This document shows, piece by piece, positions 1 through 62,280 of a stretch of 62,280 bases of DNA (its first letter is position 1; every line of letters begins with the position of its first letter). The stretch lies in the NCBI GenBank assembly GCA_944390905.1, contig CALXRR010000001.1:1-62280 (forward strand), written 5' to 3'. The notes below the pieces were generated by a model. It saw only the letters and a list, made by a program, of their open reading frames with translations. It did no database searches and was not told the origin of the DNA. This DNA is from an uncultured Alphaproteobacteria bacterium (GTDB lineage: Bacteria; Pseudomonadota; Alphaproteobacteria; RF32; CAG-239). The translations under genes were made by a program, and so were the position numbers.

Positions 1-530
1 GTAAAGTCAGCGGCAAAACTCTGCTCGGCGTGGTTATCTACTCTAACGGCGCCTCCGGCGGCGGCTGGGTAATGACGGTTAAGCCGGTTAAGACCGATAT
101 TGCATGGGGTGGATATGGAACAAATATTTCAAGTTTGCCAGACTATACAAGTTGGAGTACCGCAGCCAAAGACTTTGATAGCTGTGGTAATACCGATAAA
201 ATAAGGGCCCAAGGTAATAGTTCAAAATATCCGGCGGCATGGGCAGCTTATAATTACCAGCCGTCAGGCACACCAACGGGCAAACGTTGGTGTCTGCCTG
301 CGGCTGGCGTAATTAATAGTTTGTACAATAATTTGTCCACTATTAATACTGCTATTAGTAAAGCAGGAGGTACTAAATTAGTAAATGATAATGAACACAT
401 TTGGTCGTCGTCTGAGTACTCTAATAACCACGCGTGGTACTTCTGTACTAATTACACGGGCGGCTTGCGCGACTACGGTAAGTACGGCTACGACCACACC
501 ACCGTTGTTCGCCCGGTGCTCGCTTTCTAG
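1..530 (+). CDS. Secreted DUF1566 (Lcl C-terminal, C-type-lectin-like) family protein, paralog 1; 5' end lies outside the window
   Basis: The frame is open from nt 3 (KVSGKTLLGVVIY...), upstream of the GTG used by the ORF track. It aligns with the C-terminal half of the 16247-17200 product (LLGVVIY, KYPAAW, W-C-LP, WSSSEYS, VRPV-AF-stop). DUF1566 is assigned from remembered family motifs (W.LP...L, WSS, VR.V). Confidence 0.8.
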   Translation, partial: KVSGKTLLGVVIYSNGASGGGWVMTVKPVKTDIAWGGYGTNISSLPDYTSWSTAAKDFDSCGNTDKIRAQGNSSKYPAAWAAYNYQPSGTPTGKRWCLPAAGVINSLYNNLSTINTAISKAGGTKLVNDNEHIWSSSEYSNNHAWYFCTNYTGGLRDYGKYGYDHTTVVRPVLAF

Positions 531-878
531 GCAAATTTTCTCCCCCTGTTGCATAGGGCTGGAGAATAGCCAACAATCCAGTGAATTGTTGGCTGATGAC
601 AGCGAAGACTTGTTGACTTGTAAGAAAGCGATAGCTAACCGAAACAAGTCTTACAAGTCGAGTGACCGAAGCGAAGTTGTTAAACCCACGGCGCAACTTA
701 TGAAGCTAGAAGTTAGAGGGAGTGAGATAATTCACAGTAGATTCTTTTATATCTCACCCACCCCATCCCTCCCTATACAACAGGGAGGGAGCTAAAGGAG
801 CCTCTGTCTAACAAGAGCAAAGATGTAAGCATCGCGAATAATTAAAAAAAGAAAGTAGTAACAACTAAATTAGGGGGG

Positions 879-895
879 CAAGCTGCCCCAGCTTG
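879..895. repeat. H-type hairpin (7-bp stem, 3-nt loop), variant caagctg-ccc-cagcttg, abutting the SD of the 908 gene
   Basis: Perfect inverted repeat read directly. It has the same architecture as the hairpins at 16097, 18063, 18361 and 61973. An overlapping alternative hairpin is ggggca-agc-tgcccc (875-889). Confidence 0.6.
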
Positions 896-907
896 AGGAG
901 AAATGAG

Positions 908-1699
908 ATGAATAAGAAATATTTATTATCCAGTGTAACGGCAGGCATCGCCCTCCTTTATGCTAATCAAGGAATGGCGCAATGTGTGAGCACACAAGAC
1001 TGCGCAACTTTGGGTTATACCGAAACCTCTTGTCCAAATGGAAATGGTGTCAAGTGTCCCTTCGGCAACAAGTGGTTCTGTGGGCGAAGCGATGAACAAT
1101 GTATGGAGTTAGCTTGTGATGAGCTGGGCTTTAAATATGATTGTGTCGGAACTAATATAGCAGGCGGGGAAGGAACTGAGTGCAATGGCAAATATGTGGC
1201 TTGTAAATGCGCTTCAGGGTACGGATGGCAAGATAGCTCTTGTCAAGAAATAGTGATGAATGGTCCTGATGGTGAAGTTTATCGATGCAATGGTTCTGTA
1301 TTGGGAGTAAAAACTGCCGATATGGACTTTTATGTTGCAATGTATGATTCTGGAAAAGTAGAGTATGATGATATTGGAAATACTACATATAGCTTCTGTG
1401 CAGATACACCCGGAGTTATTCCAACAAAAGAACAACTGCTGACAATTTATAAAAATCATGAAAGAATAAATGAATTACTATCACAATATGGTGGAGATAC
1501 ATTTGATGATGAATATTACTGGTCAAATACTTGGGCATATGAAAATTGTGTAGATTCTGTATATGATGAGGAGTGGGGATATTCATGTGTAGTGGCCGTG
1601 CAGGGTTATTATGTGGTTAATTTATTGAATGGCAATACTTCTGAATATGACGAGTATTATGCTTATTTTAAGGTACGCAGGATATTAACTAAGTTTTAG
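908..1699 (+). CDS. Secreted Cys-rich + divergent DUF1566-like protein, paralog 2
   Basis: ATG 908 is preceded by GAGGAG (895-900); the ORF-track TTG at 893 is less likely. A signal peptide is followed by AQCVSTQDCATLGYTETSCPNGNGVKCPFGNKWFC, shared with the 16247-17200 product. The C-terminal half has IPTKEQL and YYWSNT motifs. Confidence 0.8.
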   Translation: MNKKYLLSSVTAGIALLYANQGMAQCVSTQDCATLGYTETSCPNGNGVKCPFGNKWFCGRSDEQCMELACDELGFKYDCVGTNIAGGEGTECNGKYVACKCASGYGWQDSSCQEIVMNGPDGEVYRCNGSVLGVKTADMDFYVAMYDSGKVEYDDIGNTTYSFCADTPGVIPTKEQLLTIYKNHERINELLSQYGGDTFDDEYYWSNTWAYENCVDSVYDEEWGYSCVVAVQGYYVVNLLNGNTSEYDEYYAYFKVRRILTKF

Positions 1700-5326: not shown

Positions 5327-5340
5327 TTTAAATACAGTGT
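5327..5340 (+). repeat. 14-mer TTTAAATACAGTGT, copy 1 (supplies the last codons and stop of the methyltransferase)
   Basis: Exact match to the five other copies. On the minus strand it reads aaa cac tgt att taa = K H C I stop. Confidence 0.9.
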
Positions 5341-16039: not shown

Positions 16040-16060
16040 TGTATGTATAACACTATCCTT

Positions 16061-16096
16061 GCCCCTGTTGAGAATCTAGAAAGCAAACACAGGACG
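16061..16096 (-). pseudogene. Relic of a DUF1566-family gene: last 6 codons plus stop (RPVFAF*) and 15-nt 3' flank only
   Basis: The minus strand reads cgt cct gtg ttt gct ttc tag followed by attctcaacaggggc. The 18-mer gcccctgttgagaatcta (16061-16078) is identical to 62048-62065, which is the stop plus flank of the 62063-62280 paralog. Confidence 0.7.
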
Positions 16097-16168
16097 GAAG
16101 CGGGTGCCGCTTCACCCACTAGGTTAGTTGTTACTTGTTCTGCGTTTTAATTAGTCGCGATGCTTGCA
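16096..16168. repeat. A-type composite repeat (H hairpin gaagcgg-gtg-ccgcttc plus about 55-nt tail), copy in 'forward' orientation
   Basis: 26/26 identity with 61972-61997. About 70% identity by eye to the reverse complement of 18011-18082 and 18310-18380. Confidence 0.75.
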
Positions 16169-16193
16169 TGGTGTCGGTGTTGAGTTCTTGACA

Positions 16194-16246: not shown

Positions 16247-17200
16247 CTAGAAAGCCATGACCGGACGGACGGAGGTGCTGTAGTAGCTGGAGGCCTTATC
16301 GTTAGTGCCAATATCAAACAAATCCCCCGTAGTGGCGCCGAACTCCCACACGCGGTCACTGGAGTACTCAGATGAAGACCAAACGTTCTCATAATAATAA
16401 CTTCCATTGTTGTATACCTTTCCTAGGATTGTTCCTCCAGCAATGCAAATACCGGCATTGACTTTGGCAAAATTGGTGGAATTATTGATGTTATTTAATA
16501 AGCCACTTGAAGGTAGGCACCAGCTTTTACCGCTTGGGGTGCCTGTTGGTTTATAATTCTTAGCTACCCATGCCGCCGGATATTTTGAACTACTGCCATA
16601 TGCGGTAATAATATCAGTATTGGTACAGCTGGCTTGTATATCTGTCGGAGTTGAAGTATAGTTAGTAAGCCTCGGAATATCTTTAGATTCCGTAGACCAC
16701 ATGGTGCCTACGCCTACCTGAACCGGCTTAACCGCTATAATCCAGCCGTTTTGTCCAGCGGATTTTTCATAAATAACCACACCCAGCAGGGTTTTAGAGC
16801 TTAATCTATCTTGTGAGCAAGTGCCGTCACTGTAATACAAAGCACCGATGACGCAGTTCGCGGTGCCATCTTCACATTGTTGAGACGAATCGTTCCAGGC
16901 GTAACCGGATGCGCAGGTGCAGGAGGTATATTTACCATTACAAGCCTTACTGCCGCCACCGGTTTGGTTGGAGCCGGTGCAGGTGAGCGTAAAACCAAGG
17001 TCATTACAGATTTCTGACTCGGATTTGAAGCATGCCCATTTGTTGCCAAACGGGCATTTGACGCCAGAGCCGCCGGAGCAAGAGGTTTCGGTATAGCCTA
17101 AAGTTGCGCAGTCTTGAGTGGCGACGCACTGGGCAAAAGTTAAATTTGGGATTAAGGACAGAGATGTCCCGATAAGTAGAAAAAGTTTAGTATTAGTCAT
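16247..17200 (-). CDS. Secreted Cys-rich + DUF1566 family protein, paralog 3 (complete, 317 aa)
   Basis: Signal peptide, then AQCVATQDCATLGYTETSCSGGSGVKCPFGNKWAC. A further Cys-rich spacer, then the DUF1566-type domain (KYPAAW, SWCLPSSG, VWSSSEYS, VRPVMAF-stop). Confidence 0.85.
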   Translation of the reverse strand: MTNTKLFLLIGTSLSLIPNLTFAQCVATQDCATLGYTETSCSGGSGVKCPFGNKWACFKSESEICNDLGFTLTCTGSNQTGGGSKACNGKYTSCTCASGYAWNDSSQQCEDGTANCVIGALYYSDGTCSQDRLSSKTLLGVVIYEKSAGQNGWIIAVKPVQVGVGTMWSTESKDIPRLTNYTSTPTDIQASCTNTDIITAYGSSSKYPAAWVAKNYKPTGTPSGKSWCLPSSGLLNNINNSTNFAKVNAGICIAGGTILGKVYNNGSYYYENVWSSSEYSSDRVWEFGATTGDLFDIGTNDKASSYYSTSVRPVMAF

Positions 17201-17204
17201 TTCA

Positions 17205-17272
17205 CAACACCCTTTGTCTTAGTAGTTAAAAACAACGTCCACTCTTTGATGACAAAGGGCGGACGGGTGTTG
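17205..17272 (-). promoter_or_regulatory. 5'-leader hairpin that pairs the SD region of the 16247-17200 gene with an upstream anti-SD
   Basis: In the mRNA sense, ccctttgtc pairs with gacaaaggg, which contains the AAGGG SD 9 nt before the AUG, and caaca pairs with tgttg. An alternative register uses gggtgttg / caacaccc. Read directly from the sequence. Confidence 0.45.
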
Positions 17273-17696
17273 CAAACCGTAGAGATATTTACGGCCCGGC
17301 ATTTTCAAGCCAAGGCTCTTATAGTACCGGCACCCGCCCCAAGAGGCATATAAGCACCGGTAATCATTATTTTAAGTCGTTATACCTAAACGACTATATC
17401 TCCAAAAGGGTTTGCACGCCCTGACGGACAAACTTTGCCCGCTAATCAAAATTCTAGCATAACAGAGCTTAAAAATCAATGAATAAGTCTTGAGAGTTAG
17501 AAATATCTTGAAATGGCGGCGGTATTGGGTGTTATTTGACTAATTTTGTCCAGTGTTTTTTGGGGAGGTAGGGGTAAAGGGATGAGTAAAAAGGAAGTTA
17601 GGGGATGGAATGGAAGAGTATAGAAGGAGGCGGAGCGGGGATGGAAGTTAGTCGGTATTGGGTTTGGTGGAGTGGAGTAGAATAAAAAATATTATC

Positions 17697-17730
17697 AACT
17701 GTCATGTTCGGGCTTGACCCGGACATCTAA
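17697..17730. repeat. B-type hairpin repeat, inverted copy
   Basis: atgttcggg-cttga-cccggacat, a 9-bp stem with one G-T pair. Confidence 0.6.
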
Positions 17731-17740
17731 ACGCTGGTTT

Positions 17741-17823
17741 GAGTTAGAGTTTGTTAGTAGTTTAGGCTCCGGCATAGCCGGAGGCACAAGCTCTACCAGC
17801 TTGTGTTGGATGGTTTTTTATAA
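17741..17823. repeat. Composite repeat, diverged A-tail plus R1 double hairpin
   Basis: 17767-17805 (ctccggcatagccggaggcacaagctctaccagcttgtg) is 39/39 identical to 18079-18117. It contains the hairpins ctccggc-ata-gccggag and cacaagct-ctacc-agcttgtg. Confidence 0.8.
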
Positions 17824-18010
17824 GGTAAGTTGTGAGATAAAGATTGTGTGTTTAATTTAGGTAAGATAATCTATCGCGTCTAATTTTGTCCAAGAGACTA
17901 AGAGATGAAGAGAAGAAAGAGGGTAATAGGAAAGTTAAAGATAATATTTAGAAACAAAATCCCGACCCTCTCAACAGCTAAACTGGGTGGAGTTCAACGG
18001 CCTCGGGAGT

Positions 18011-18134
18011 GAGCAACGCGACTACTTGAAACATGGGATAAGTAACAGCTAAGTTAGGGGATGAAGCTGGCACAGCTTCTCCGGCATAGCCGGAGGCACA
18101 AGCTCTACCAGCTTGTGGTGGATGGTTTTTATAA
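18011..18134. repeat. Composite repeat: A-tail + H hairpin (gaagctg-gca-cagcttc) + R1 double hairpin (most complete copy)
   Basis: 18018-18056 is 39/39 identical to 18316-18354. The H hairpin is at 18063-18079 and R1 at 18079-18117. Confidence 0.85.
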
Positions 18135-18181
18135 TGGTATAATCTTAGGATTAAACATGGATACTTTATCTAAATTAAGCA

Positions 18182-18223
18182 TAGATCCTGGGGCGCGCTG
18201 CGCTTGTCCGAGGATGACAGTGC
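18182..18223. repeat. B-type repeat, partial/diverged copy
   Basis: It shares ..gtccgaggatgacagtgc with 16211-16228; the 5' half is diverged. Confidence 0.5.
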
Positions 18224-18309
18224 AAGATGATAGGCAGGCGGCAATATCTAAGCAACGCGATTTTCTGGGCACGAAACAAACCACAGCTAACCTAGGGCTC
18301 CACGAGCAT

Positions 18310-18380
18310 CGTGGAGCGACTACTTGAAACATGGGATAAGTAACAGCTAAGTTAAGAAGTGAAGCTGGCACAGCTTCTTG
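18310..18380. repeat. Composite repeat: A-tail + H hairpin (second tandem-like copy)
   Basis: Identical 39-mer plus the identical 18-mer gaagctggcacagcttct (18361-18378), preceded by the hairpin ctccacga-gca-tcgtggag (18298-18316). Confidence 0.85.
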
Positions 18381-18446
18381 CGCAGGAGAGGAGGGTAATT
18401 TTGGGAGGTGGGGTTGCGGCAAGAAAAATTGTGTCGTTTAGCCTAA

Positions 18447-19514
18447 TTATGCTTGCTCTTTTTTGGATTTGAGCTGGCCGCAGGCTGCCAGGATATCTTG
18501 TCCGCGGGGGACGCGTATCGGTGCGGCAAAGCGGTTCTTTTGCAGTTCTTTAGAAAAAGCGATAATCCGGCTCTTGGGGCTCGGCTCATAAGCACACCCC
18601 GGCCATGGGTTAAACGCTATCAAGTTGAACTTGGCATTAATCTTAAACTTGCGCATCAAGTCTATCAGCTCGTGGGCATCAGCCAGAGAATCATTAAAAT
18701 CTTTAAGCATAAGGTATTCAAAAGTAACAAAATGACTGCCGTCAAGTTGTTGATACTCATGACAAGCGGTCAAAACTTCCTCTAACGGGTAGCGCTTGTT
18801 AATAGGCATAATCTGTGAGCGTTTCTCATTATTGGGGGCATGCAGGCTGATTGCCAGTTTGACGCCGGTGGCTTGAATCATCGGCACAATATTGGGAGCT
18901 ATCCCTGATGTAGACAAAGTGATGCGACGTTTGGAAATGGCTATACCATCGCCGTCGGTCAAAATCTTGAGGGCTTTGATGACGTTGTCCATATTATGCA
19001 GAGGCTCACCCATGCCCATAACCACGATATTGGAAAGGTAGCGGGTTTCGTCTTTGGGTGATGGCCATTCATGATAAGCATCGCGAGCGGCCATAAACTG
19101 ACCGACAATCTCTCCGGCGGTCAAGTTGCGGGTGATTTTTTGGCTGCCGGTATGACAGAATTTGCACCCAACCGCGCAGCCCACCTGTGTGGAAATACAG
19201 ACGGCGCCGCGGTCTTCTTCCGGAATATAAACCGTCTCGATACGCTGGCCGTCGGGAAACTCAAACAACCACTTGTGGGTTTTGTCAGCAGAAATCTGTT
19301 CGGTTATGATTTTGGGGCGAGTAATTGAACAGTGTTCCTCAAGCTTGGCGCGGAAGTCTTTGGAGAGGCTGCTCATTTGCGCAAAATCAGTTGCGCCGTG
19401 GTAATAGAGCCACTGCCACAATTGTTTGGCGCGGAAAGGTTTTTCACCCAAATCAGCAATAAAAGATGAAAGCTCCTCTTTGCTCAAGCCGATGAGTTCT
19501 ACTTTATCAGTCAT
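18447..19514 (-). CDS. rlmN: 23S rRNA/tRNA (adenine-C2)-methyltransferase RlmN (radical SAM)
   Basis: CAVGCKFCHTG radical-SAM cluster motif, GMGEP, C-terminal ACGQL. Start set to the ATG at 19514 (MTDKVELIG), 4 nt after the upstream stop. Confidence 0.92.
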   Translation of the reverse strand: MTDKVELIGLSKEELSSFIADLGEKPFRAKQLWQWLYYHGATDFAQMSSLSKDFRAKLEEHCSITRPKIITEQISADKTHKWLFEFPDGQRIETVYIPEEDRGAVCISTQVGCAVGCKFCHTGSQKITRNLTAGEIVGQFMAARDAYHEWPSPKDETRYLSNIVVMGMGEPLHNMDNVIKALKILTDGDGIAISKRRITLSTSGIAPNIVPMIQATGVKLAISLHAPNNEKRSQIMPINKRYPLEEVLTACHEYQQLDGSHFVTFEYLMLKDFNDSLADAHELIDLMRKFKINAKFNLIAFNPWPGCAYEPSPKSRIIAFSKELQKNRFAAPIRVPRGQDILAACGQLKSKKEQA

Positions 19515-24199: not shown

Positions 24200-24296
24200 G
24201 AGAGGGAGGACGTCGGGTTAGTCGGTCGCCAATCCGGTCAGGTTCGGAAGAAAGCAGCCGTAACGATGCGGATTAAGGTCGATGCTCCTCCTCTCT
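24200..24296 (+). ncRNA. ffs: Signal recognition particle RNA (4.5S RNA)
   Basis: ggtcaggttcggaagaaagcagcc matches the conserved SRP domain IV sequence. The closing stem is agagggaggacgtcg / cgatgctcctcctctct, followed by a T-run. It is located upstream of dnaX, as is usual. Confidence 0.85.
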
Positions 24297-24327
24297 TTTT
24301 GATTGGTTCTGGTTGGTTTTAGAAAAA

Positions 24328-61971: not shown

Positions 61972-62010
61972 GGAAGCGGGTGCCGCTTCACCCACTAACC
62001 TAGCTGTTGA
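61972..62010. repeat. A-type repeat, partial copy (H hairpin gaagcgg-gtg-ccgcttc plus start of tail)
   Basis: 26/26 identity with 16096-16121. Confidence 0.8.
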
Positions 62011-62015
62011 TGGAT

Positions 62016-62053
62016 AGGGGCAGAGAAACGAACTGCGTTCGTACCGTGCCCCT
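62016..62053 (-). terminator. Nested hairpin 10 nt downstream of the paralog-4 stop (terminator-like, no clear U-run)
   Basis: The outer stem is aggggca / tgcccct. It encloses the inner hairpin acgaac-tgc-gttcgt. Confidence 0.4.
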
Positions 62054-62062
62054 GTTGAGAAT

Positions 62063-62280
62063 CTAAAAAGCGAGCACCGGGCGAACGGAGCGGCTGCTGT
62101 TGTAGTAGTCCTTATAGTAGTCGCCCATACCGAACGAACCACTCGTACCGGCGCCGAAGCCCCACGCGCCGTCGTCGGAGTACTCAGACGACGACCAAAC
62201 GTACTCATAGGAAGAAGAGGTACCAAATCCTATTTTTTTACCTCCGGCAGTGGTGATGCCGGCGTTGACTTTGGCGAAAT
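62063..62280 (-). CDS. DUF1566 family protein, paralog 4; only the C-terminal 72 codons are in the window
   Basis: Not in the ORF track because it has no in-window start. The minus strand reads ...AKVNAGITTAGGKKIGFGTSSSYEYVWSSSEYSDDGAWGFGAGTSGSFGMGDYYKDYYNSSRSVRPVLAF-stop (stop complement at 62063-62065). Confidence 0.8.
   Translation of the reverse strand, partial: FAKVNAGITTAGGKKIGFGTSSSYEYVWSSSEYSDDGAWGFGAGTSGSFGMGDYYKDYYNSSRSVRPVLAF

Follow-up and report, generated by a model that had tools for sequence, protein, structure and literature searches.

Why should genes that have otherwise diverged strongly from one another keep short islands of nearly identical DNA? This question is raised by the 62,280-nucleotide stretch analyzed here (hereafter the window; contig CALXRR010000001.1 of assembly GCA_944390905.1, from an uncultured Alphaproteobacteria bacterium), in which open reading frame (ORF) listing and translation identify four members of one protein family, denoted m1 to m4. 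The original prediction, made from this DNA alone, ascribed the islands to gene conversion or segmental recombination, or else to a constraint at the DNA level. We consider it very likely that m1, m3 and m4 are remote targets of a diversity-generating retroelement (DGR) within a family of recombining paralogues, with m2 being a paralogue that lacks the DGR signature. This reading is carried by a codon signature at the C-termini of m1, m3 and m4, by retroelement cassettes in relatives that include targets from the same family, by mismatches in those cassettes that fall at adenines only, and by mosaicism of the N-terminal part of the genes.

The four genes lie at the predicted loci, together with one short relic, as ORFs and repeats both indicate, and tblastn across the window returned no fifth member. 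m1 (positions 3–530, plus strand) has its 5′ end cut by the window edge and encodes, in translation, a C-terminal lectin-like domain with a variable region; m2 (908–1699, plus strand) is a complete paralogue with a diverged DUF1566-like C-terminus; m3 (16247–17200, minus strand) is complete and 317 aa long; and m4 (62063–62280, minus strand) is again cut at its 5′ end by the window edge. m1 and m3 are 47% identical. As had been anticipated, m2 and m3 share a signal peptide and a Cys-rich module of the form AQCV(S/A)TQDCATLGYTETSC..G.GVKCPFGNKW.C, which in m3 occupies 16845–17200 (minus strand), a tract that is mosaic between strains. The identities given for the two islands that had been singled out are exact, with 36/38 identical nucleotides between 995–1032 in the N-terminal part of m2 (QDCATLGYTETSC, plus strand) and the reverse complement of 17079–17116 in m3, and 22/22 between 400–421 in m1 and the reverse complement of 62178–62199 in m4. 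The last eight codons had been described as nearly invariant, and the octapeptide (S/V)VRPV(L/M)AF is indeed found in m1, m3 and m4; m2, however, ends in VRRILTKF.

In an alignment of 25 homologues, invariant residues alternate with hypervariable ones, residue by residue, over the last ~45 codons. At the codon level, m1, m3 and m4 have variable codons of the form NNC or NNT (NNY, where Y is a pyrimidine), set among fixed scaffold codons (TGG, TTC, GCG, AAG, GTT CGC CCG and others). This variable region (VR) spans 393–527 in m1 (plus strand; type 2, ...WSSSEYS xxx AW x FCT ... K ... VVRPVLAF), 16250–16390 in m3 (minus strand; type 1, WSSSEYS xxx (A/V)W x F x A x T .... K xxxxxxx SVRPVMAF) and 62066–62206 in m4 (minus strand; type 1). 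In m2, both the NNY pattern and a matching 3′ end are absent, its codons being A/T-ending and including codons for E, K and Q.

To define the hypervariable positions independently of codon usage, 19 columns were set from the amino-acid entropy of 119 homologues. The residues at these columns are nearly restricted to the 15 amino acids that can be reached from AAY codons by changes at adenines, as is characteristic of a DGR VR: Y, N, D, S and G dominate, and K, E, Q, M and W, which lie outside this set, make up 73 of 2222 residues (3.3%). The hypervariable codons are NNY in 17/17 cases in m4 and in 18/19 cases in m3. Across ten members, 163/171 hypervariable codons are NNY, compared to a share of 60% in other parts of these genes (Fisher p = 1.5e-25), a value that is partly circular because these ten were picked by a low count of A-ending VR codons; the counts for m3 and m4 are unaffected by this choice. 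Moreover, the third base is specific to the column across species of metagenome-assembled genomes (MAGs): a few exceptions aside, columns 23, 34 and 39 have T and all remaining hypervariable columns have C, and none of 20000 permutations reached the observed third-base score. A cruder test of pyrimidine versus purine third bases over the whole VR of the window members, scaffold codons included, gave a weak signal (p = 0.048), and it is the restriction to the independently defined hypervariable columns that makes the test decisive. A third base that stays fixed while the first two bases are scrambled does not result from protein selection or from conversion tracts, but is what would be expected from AAT and AAC template codons subjected to adenine-specific misincorporation.

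The C-terminal islands can be placed within this scheme. The 22/22 island, TTTGGTCGTCGTCTGAGTACTC (encoding WSSSEY), represents the 5′-terminal scaffold of the VR, and the “last eight codons” are its GC-rich 3′ end, which contains the 14-mer CGCCCGGTGCTCGC and resembles an initiation of mutagenic homing (IMH) sequence. In m1 this end, with the stop codon, lies at 504–530 (plus strand; GTT CGC CCG GTG CTC GCT TTC). The terminal sequence of both m1 and m4 is GTTCGCCCGGTGCTCGCTTT, which differs by a single base from the 3′ ends of template repeats (TRs) found in two related loci described below (L090 and L102); the scaffold codons and 3′ end of m4 also recur without change in a member from an unrelated context (L002). 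GC-rich hairpins follow 8–25 nt past the stop codons of m1 and m4; those of m1 occupy 538–594 (plus strand), that is, 8–65 nt past the stop, with a DNA fold z of −3.6, and those of m4 form a double-hairpin element at 61972–62062 (minus strand; z = −4.5), the same unit as is found around the relic (repeats D5 and D15). A VR at the 3′ end of the ORF, a shared GC-rich IMH-like end and a hairpin thus coincide in m1 and m4, whereas m3 deviates from the shared end at five bases and is followed by a weaker hairpin (z = −1.8). The C-terminal patches are far beyond chance, the cause being one that the original prediction had left unnamed; its alternative of a DNA-level constraint was loosely right, because the constraint is the template repeat.

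Retroelements that use family members as targets are present in related gut Alphaproteobacteria. A TR peptide predicted from the VRs, used as a protein-database query, gave a single match, a 74-aa ORF (P0121, ...WSSSENSNNNAWNLCVNETQGLNNNNKNNNNQYVRPVLAF...) that sits between bAvd and RVT_1 genes in L090 and L091, with both domains confirmed by Pfam. The order within these cassettes is family-member target, bAvd, two to five tandem TRs and reverse transcriptase (RT). In L090, which has three tandem non-identical TRs, the gene directly upstream of Avd is a family member with the N-terminal module QC.AT.DC..LGY...C..G.G.KCPFG..W.C, and its VR differs from the TR denoted TRc by ~20 mismatches, all of them at TR adenines, with all remaining bases matching as far as the stop codon. 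The same holds for the TR/VR pair of L092, where 20/20 mismatches are at TR adenines and none elsewhere. The RT of L090 has the DGR motifs IGNLTSQIFANFYL and YVDD, and as a query it retrieved 6177 relatives, some of which are named as reverse transcriptases of Alphaproteobacteria MAGs. The same cassette is found beside ligA and infC at five loci (L090, L091, L092, L098 and L101). A further 701-kb contig (L096) has the same Avd, a five-TR array, the RT and two genes 3′ of the RT, with no ligA or infC in the stretch that was fetched, and L097 is a 1.9-kb fragment with the RT and two TRs.

The tandem TRs of these relatives (L090, 9728–10500; L096, 4750–6020; L101, 6590–7232; L102, 1–586) are non-identical and number two to five, each with its own conserved upstream leader (in peptide frame F(F/L)IKKG(L/R)PTA...) and its own downstream tail. 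Directly upstream of the cassette target there is always a second Cys-rich secreted protein of ~300 aa without a Pfam match (L090, 7150–8085; L101, 3306–4205), which ends in ...CPFDTTYKFCM and thereby resembles the CPFGNKW.C motif of the family’s N-terminal module. We also note that the RT of L101 (P0200, 7267–8283) is frameshifted directly after YGRYV, which may reflect either inactivation of the DGR in that strain or an assembly error.

The VRs in the window can be linked to such templates to differing degrees. Searching with P0121 by phmmer retrieved TR ORFs of the m1 type (P0249, P0252 and P0258; AW x FCT ... K ... VVRPVLAF), and TR2 of L102, a homologous but non-cognate template, aligns with the m1 VR without gaps over 129 nt. 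The mismatches fall at 17/39 adenines compared to 17/90 non-adenines (p = 0.005), a pattern that one expects of a homologous TR from another strain. Close alleles point the same way: m1 and P0064 are identical at 87/89 residues just upstream of the VR and diverge within it, with a VR length difference that matches two different TRs of the L102/P0249 kind, and m4 differs from P0103 almost solely at hypervariable positions. We infer that m1 and m4 are live, still-diversified targets, and that the genome from which the window comes has its own cassette, probably with several TRs. m3, with its 3′ end five bases off the consensus, may be inactive.

The mechanism that we propose would operate as follows. 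A cassette elsewhere on the chromosome, with Avd, several tandem TRs and an RT, would transcribe one TR, and the RT would copy it while misincorporating opposite adenines, so that AAC and AAT codons of the TR become NNC and NNT. The resulting cDNA would replace the VR of any gene with a matching GC-rich, IMH-like 3′ end (GTTCGCCCGGTGCTCGCTTT) and a downstream hairpin, and the cassette could thus act in trans on dispersed targets. The islands of perfect identity at the C-terminus would then correspond to the non-adenine positions of the TR and to the IMH, standing among scrambled codons. The rest of the gene would diversify separately, by homologous recombination among paralogues and strains, giving rise to a mosaic of blocks.

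This last component can be followed most directly in m3. Compared to its orthologue in a second strain (L080), m3 shows 31 mismatches over the initial 356 nt against 2 over the other 598 nt, with flanks that differ by 1.35%. Within coding positions 83–143 of m3, m2 agrees with the window m3 at 8/10 of the sites that differ from L080, and the alternative haplotype of L080 is shared with another family member, P0021. Chimeric homologues are also found: in P0043 the m2 N-terminus is joined to an m3-type body, and in P0048 the first 126 aa are those of P0001, whereas the body is another one. When multi-residue block alleles were scored at seven positions in 120 homologues, all four combinations were present for 19/21 pairs of positions. 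The sharp shifts in divergence and the incompatible combinations of block alleles are those of mosaic paralogues. The strain mosaic, the chimeras and the reassortment of block alleles together indicate that recombination is real in the N-terminal two-thirds of the genes, and for this part the proposed gene conversion or segmental recombination is borne out; it fails for the C-terminal patchwork, where the preponderance of NNY codons and the column-specific third base speak for templated mutagenesis. The m2/m3 pair does not reveal recombination when taken alone. The identical synonymous codons of the 36/38 island are not significantly clustered (permutation p ~0.1), and most of this identity is due to amino-acid conservation, such that this particular patch, considered by itself, is not beyond chance.

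A number of observations weigh against the DGR reading, or at least against its application to every member. The 62-kb window contains neither RT nor Avd nor TR, none was found in the 0.94 Mb of sequence flanking family members of other MAGs, and both an RT-motif regular expression and phmmer with Brt of phage BPP-1 gave nothing in either set; BLASTN with a hypothetical TR against the window and the family-flanking DNA returned VRs only, and no A-rich copy. The cognate type-1 TR for m3 and m4 (AW x F x A x T SGSF x M xxxx K x7 SVRPVLAF) was not found: no called ORF matched it, TR DNA patterns gave nothing, or chance matches in a phage structural gene, in viral contigs, and nothing in JGI metagenomes (a collection with five family loci only), and look-ups guided by the RT and TR recovered several cassettes and one TR-only fragment, none of which has a type-1 TR. 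The VR of m3 is identical in L080 even though the flanks differ, its 3′ end departs from the consensus IMH by the five bases noted above, and one of its hypervariable columns holds a GAG codon. In addition, the 3.3% of K, E, Q, M and W among hypervariable residues of homologues lie outside the expected set, the hairpins 3′ of the stop codons could be plain terminators, and all Pfam matches to DUF1566 stay below the gathering score.

Several of these points would be accounted for if the VRs were fossils, that is, if a DGR had written the C-termini in an ancestor or donor and there were no active cassette now, leaving only point mutation and recombination to act. We regard this as unlikely, but it would fit a window without RT or TR, the m3 VR shared by two strains, and the drift of the m3 3′ end and of several scaffold codons, as well as the members in other MAGs that have ordinary codon usage in this region (e.g., L008, L013, L015 and L016) and the one related cassette with a frameshifted RT (P0200 in L101). 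It fits poorly with m1 and m4, which keep the IMH-like end intact, and with m4 in particular, where all 17 hypervariable codons are NNY and there is no sign of decay. Nor would one expect from fossils that close alleles diverge mainly within the VR, that hundreds of homologues each have a different VR, or that cassettes are common in the clade.

The two remaining explanations dispense with a template altogether. Gene conversion or cassette-type recombination among paralogues could in principle produce all of the identity patches, including those at the C-terminus, and the strain-level mosaicism of m3, the chimeric homologues, the 19/21 block pairs that fail the four-gamete test, and the repeated hairpin elements and relic 3′ ends adjoining the genes are all in its favor. 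However, C-terminal variation is interleaved by single codons and not by blocks, the variable codons are NNY with a third base specific to the column, a real TR/RT system with adenine-only mismatches exists for this family, and the m2/m3 island alone is not significant. The codon pattern refutes this explanation for the C-terminus, whereas for the N-terminal part it stands, and as an account of the whole we consider it very improbable. Still less credible, to our minds, is a reading without templated mutagenesis, in which exposed binding residues are under ordinary diversifying selection and the scaffold is under purifying selection. Binding surfaces rich in Y, S, G, D and N do arise in other binders, and scaffold and exposed residues do alternate in β strands, but protein-level selection has no means of holding a synonymous third base constant in each column from species to species when the two bases before it change, nor of keeping out the NNR codons for G, A, T, S, V and R. 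Taking these arguments together with the points raised above, we retain the remote-DGR-target reading for m1, m3 and m4.

What kind of protein is being diversified? Database searching with m3 gave 1266 relatives, which come from metagenomes or MAGs without exception and have neither a name nor a Pfam domain; among species-representative genomes, those with the family belong to uncultured gut Alphaproteobacteria. In each of two MAGs there are dozens of loci in which the signal peptide and Cys-rich module are shared and the C-termini are often different. The family is thus large as well as dispersed, secreted and variable, as had been predicted, and its proteins probably bind ligands. In the protein plan, a Sec signal peptide (...A|QC) precedes a Cys-rich module of ~100 aa without a known fold, which is followed by a C-terminal DUF1566/C-type-lectin-like binding domain; the signal peptide and its A|QC cleavage site were read off the sequence. 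Judged from this architecture, the proteins would be exported, surface-exposed or secreted ligand binders.

The assignment of the C-terminal domain to DUF1566 with a C-type-lectin-like fold, which the original prediction had put forward, is supported only indirectly. The Pfam family Lcl_C (PF07603, formerly DUF1566) matches m1 only, at 15.4 bits (E = 0.023), under the gathering cutoff of 34.9 bits, and m2, m3 and m4 have no Lcl_C match; the target in L101 scores 17.3 bits, which is also sub-threshold. On the other hand, precomputed database annotations place PF07603 on ORFs in which a TR is fused to an RT, and weakly on one TR ORF of L096. In the AlphaFold2 (AF2) model of m3, residues 1–94 are unstructured and residues 111–317 have a mean pLDDT (predicted local distance difference test score) of 70–92 per 10-residue block. 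Its sole significant match in the PDB is 4EPS (E = 1.4e-4 over 263 columns, 16% identity, query-normalized TM-score 0.44), and no solved Lcl_C structure matched the model significantly (8q4e, E = 0.23). 4EPS has served as a structural model for DUF1566-type DGR targets and is similar to the variable region of TvpA, and DUF1566 is the commonest DGR target domain in human microbiomes (PMC4159848). One homologue, P0108, has an internal duplication of YPAAWAAKNYKEGGKTWCLPSG in its lectin-like domain, which may be an assembly artifact or a product of recombination.

DUF1566-type targets (CLec2, category “d”) form a recognized class among DGRs, with Legionella LdtA as the example (Wu et al. 2018, PMC5758913), and remote targets are known from Treponema and other chromosomal DGRs (PMC5758913), such that the window genes belong to a known class. 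As with the Legionella pneumophila DGR and LdtA, the putative system is chromosomal and not phage-borne, and the VR forms the very C-terminal end of a secreted DUF1566-like protein, has the motif WSS(S/T)E...AW...K...VRPV, and has a GC-rich end followed by a hairpin. In contrast to LdtA, which has a lipoprotein signal, the present family has a Sec signal of the signal peptidase I type and a novel Cys-rich module; its targets are many and dispersed, and the related cassettes have two to five tandem TRs, with none in the window. The TvpA DGR of Treponema denticola offers a parallel for one chromosomal RT and TR that serve several non-adjacent paralogous targets with the VR in a C-type-lectin-type fold, but TvpA has the FGE-sulfatase-type lectin fold, and the family here is larger (dozens of loci per MAG) and recombines extensively in its N-terminal part. 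The AAY codons in the TR, the adenine-specific mismatches, the 3′ IMH of the VR and Avd all recall Mtd, Brt and the TR of Bordetella phage BPP-1, and a common mechanism can be inferred from them; BPP-1, however, is phage-borne, with one TR and only one target, which is adjacent. The PDB entry that best matches the m3 AF2 model, BACOVA_04982 (4EPS), is a fimbrial-type protein of Bacteroides ovatus and differs in its N-terminal architecture. For the N-terminal two-thirds only, the reassortment of multi-residue block alleles among copies is reminiscent of Neisseria pilE/pilS and Borrelia vlsE, and conserved flanking segments could guide exchange here as in those systems. Unlike there, we see no evidence of a single expression site with silent cassettes, since the copies observed are complete genes with their own signal peptides.

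It is tempting, though decidedly tentative, to go one step further and suggest that one chromosomal DGR with a tandem array of non-identical TRs serves dozens of dispersed secreted paralogues, that targets switch between TRs, and that recombination independently shuffles the N-termini, resulting in a two-tier diversification of a surface or secreted binding repertoire in a little-known lineage of gut Alphaproteobacteria. If this were the case, the presence of two VR length classes at m1-type genes would follow from TR switching. The less usual aspects of the system, namely the arrays of two to five different tandem TRs, a target family of such size and mosaicism, and the novel Cys-rich module at the N-terminus, either lie outside the window or exceed what it can show. 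What the window does provide is the step from a vague patchwork of identity to a specific, testable mechanism, in which the islands are the template-fixed positions of a retroelement-written VR. It also illustrates that DGR targets can be recognized from codon structure (NNY codons, a column-specific third base and a conserved GC-rich end) without the retroelement in hand. TR arrays combined with a large mosaic family would be a natural case in which to study how one RT chooses its templates and remote targets, and how hypermutation and recombination combine, and a hypervariable secreted binding repertoire is a lead to the interactions of uncultured gut Alphaproteobacteria with host, phage or neighboring cells.

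The DNA around the family genes has further peculiarities. Both window ends (positions 1 and 62280) lie inside family genes, m1 and m4 respectively; in each case the window includes the VR but lacks the N-terminal part, and contigs that encode the exact Nth and porin neighbor proteins end at or before family genes. That the window and other assemblies break at family genes suggests repeat-induced assembly breaks in the conserved N-terminal modules. Independent assemblies of the m3 locus (L001 and L080) stop just upstream of m3, where 1.25 kb (17200–18450) contain no ORF of at least 100 aa and are filled by repeated hairpin elements (D2 at 18018–18080 and 18316–18378; D8 at 17767–17827 and 18079–18139), with a related copy at 834–896. 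The latter falls within a copy of the repeated intergenic hairpin element at 823–896 (no strand assigned; repeats I3 and D2), which adjoins family genes.

On the 3′ side of family genes there is a unit of ~110 nt (16057–16169 and 61972–62062 in the window, and 1142–1400 in L080) that consists of a double hairpin followed by a degenerate VR 3′ end with a stop codon. The relic belongs here: at 16057–16111 (minus strand; repeat D5) it comprises a degenerate VR 3′ end, the stop codon and ~20 nt of downstream sequence, and it matches 62044–62098 at 76%. L080 has two such units in tandem, while the window has a different insert and one unit at the same place; possible origins of the unit are unequal crossing-over at IMH-like ends or aberrant homing.

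Finally, Rfam and tRNA scans of the window returned nothing related to the family, the only hit being a small bacterial signal recognition particle (SRP) RNA at 24202–24297 (RF00169, 60.9 bits), an ordinary housekeeping feature. Separately from the family, the 15-mer TTTAAATACAGTGTT occurs nine times with at most one mismatch, compared to 0.03 occurrences expected in the window (positions 5327, 29102, 42031, 42076, 43991, 44461, 45299, 46017 and 46780). Eight of the nine copies are on the plus strand, seven lie between 42 and 47 kb, and several sit at the 3′ ends of minus-strand ORFs or directly beyond them; a regulatory or uptake-type motif is possible.

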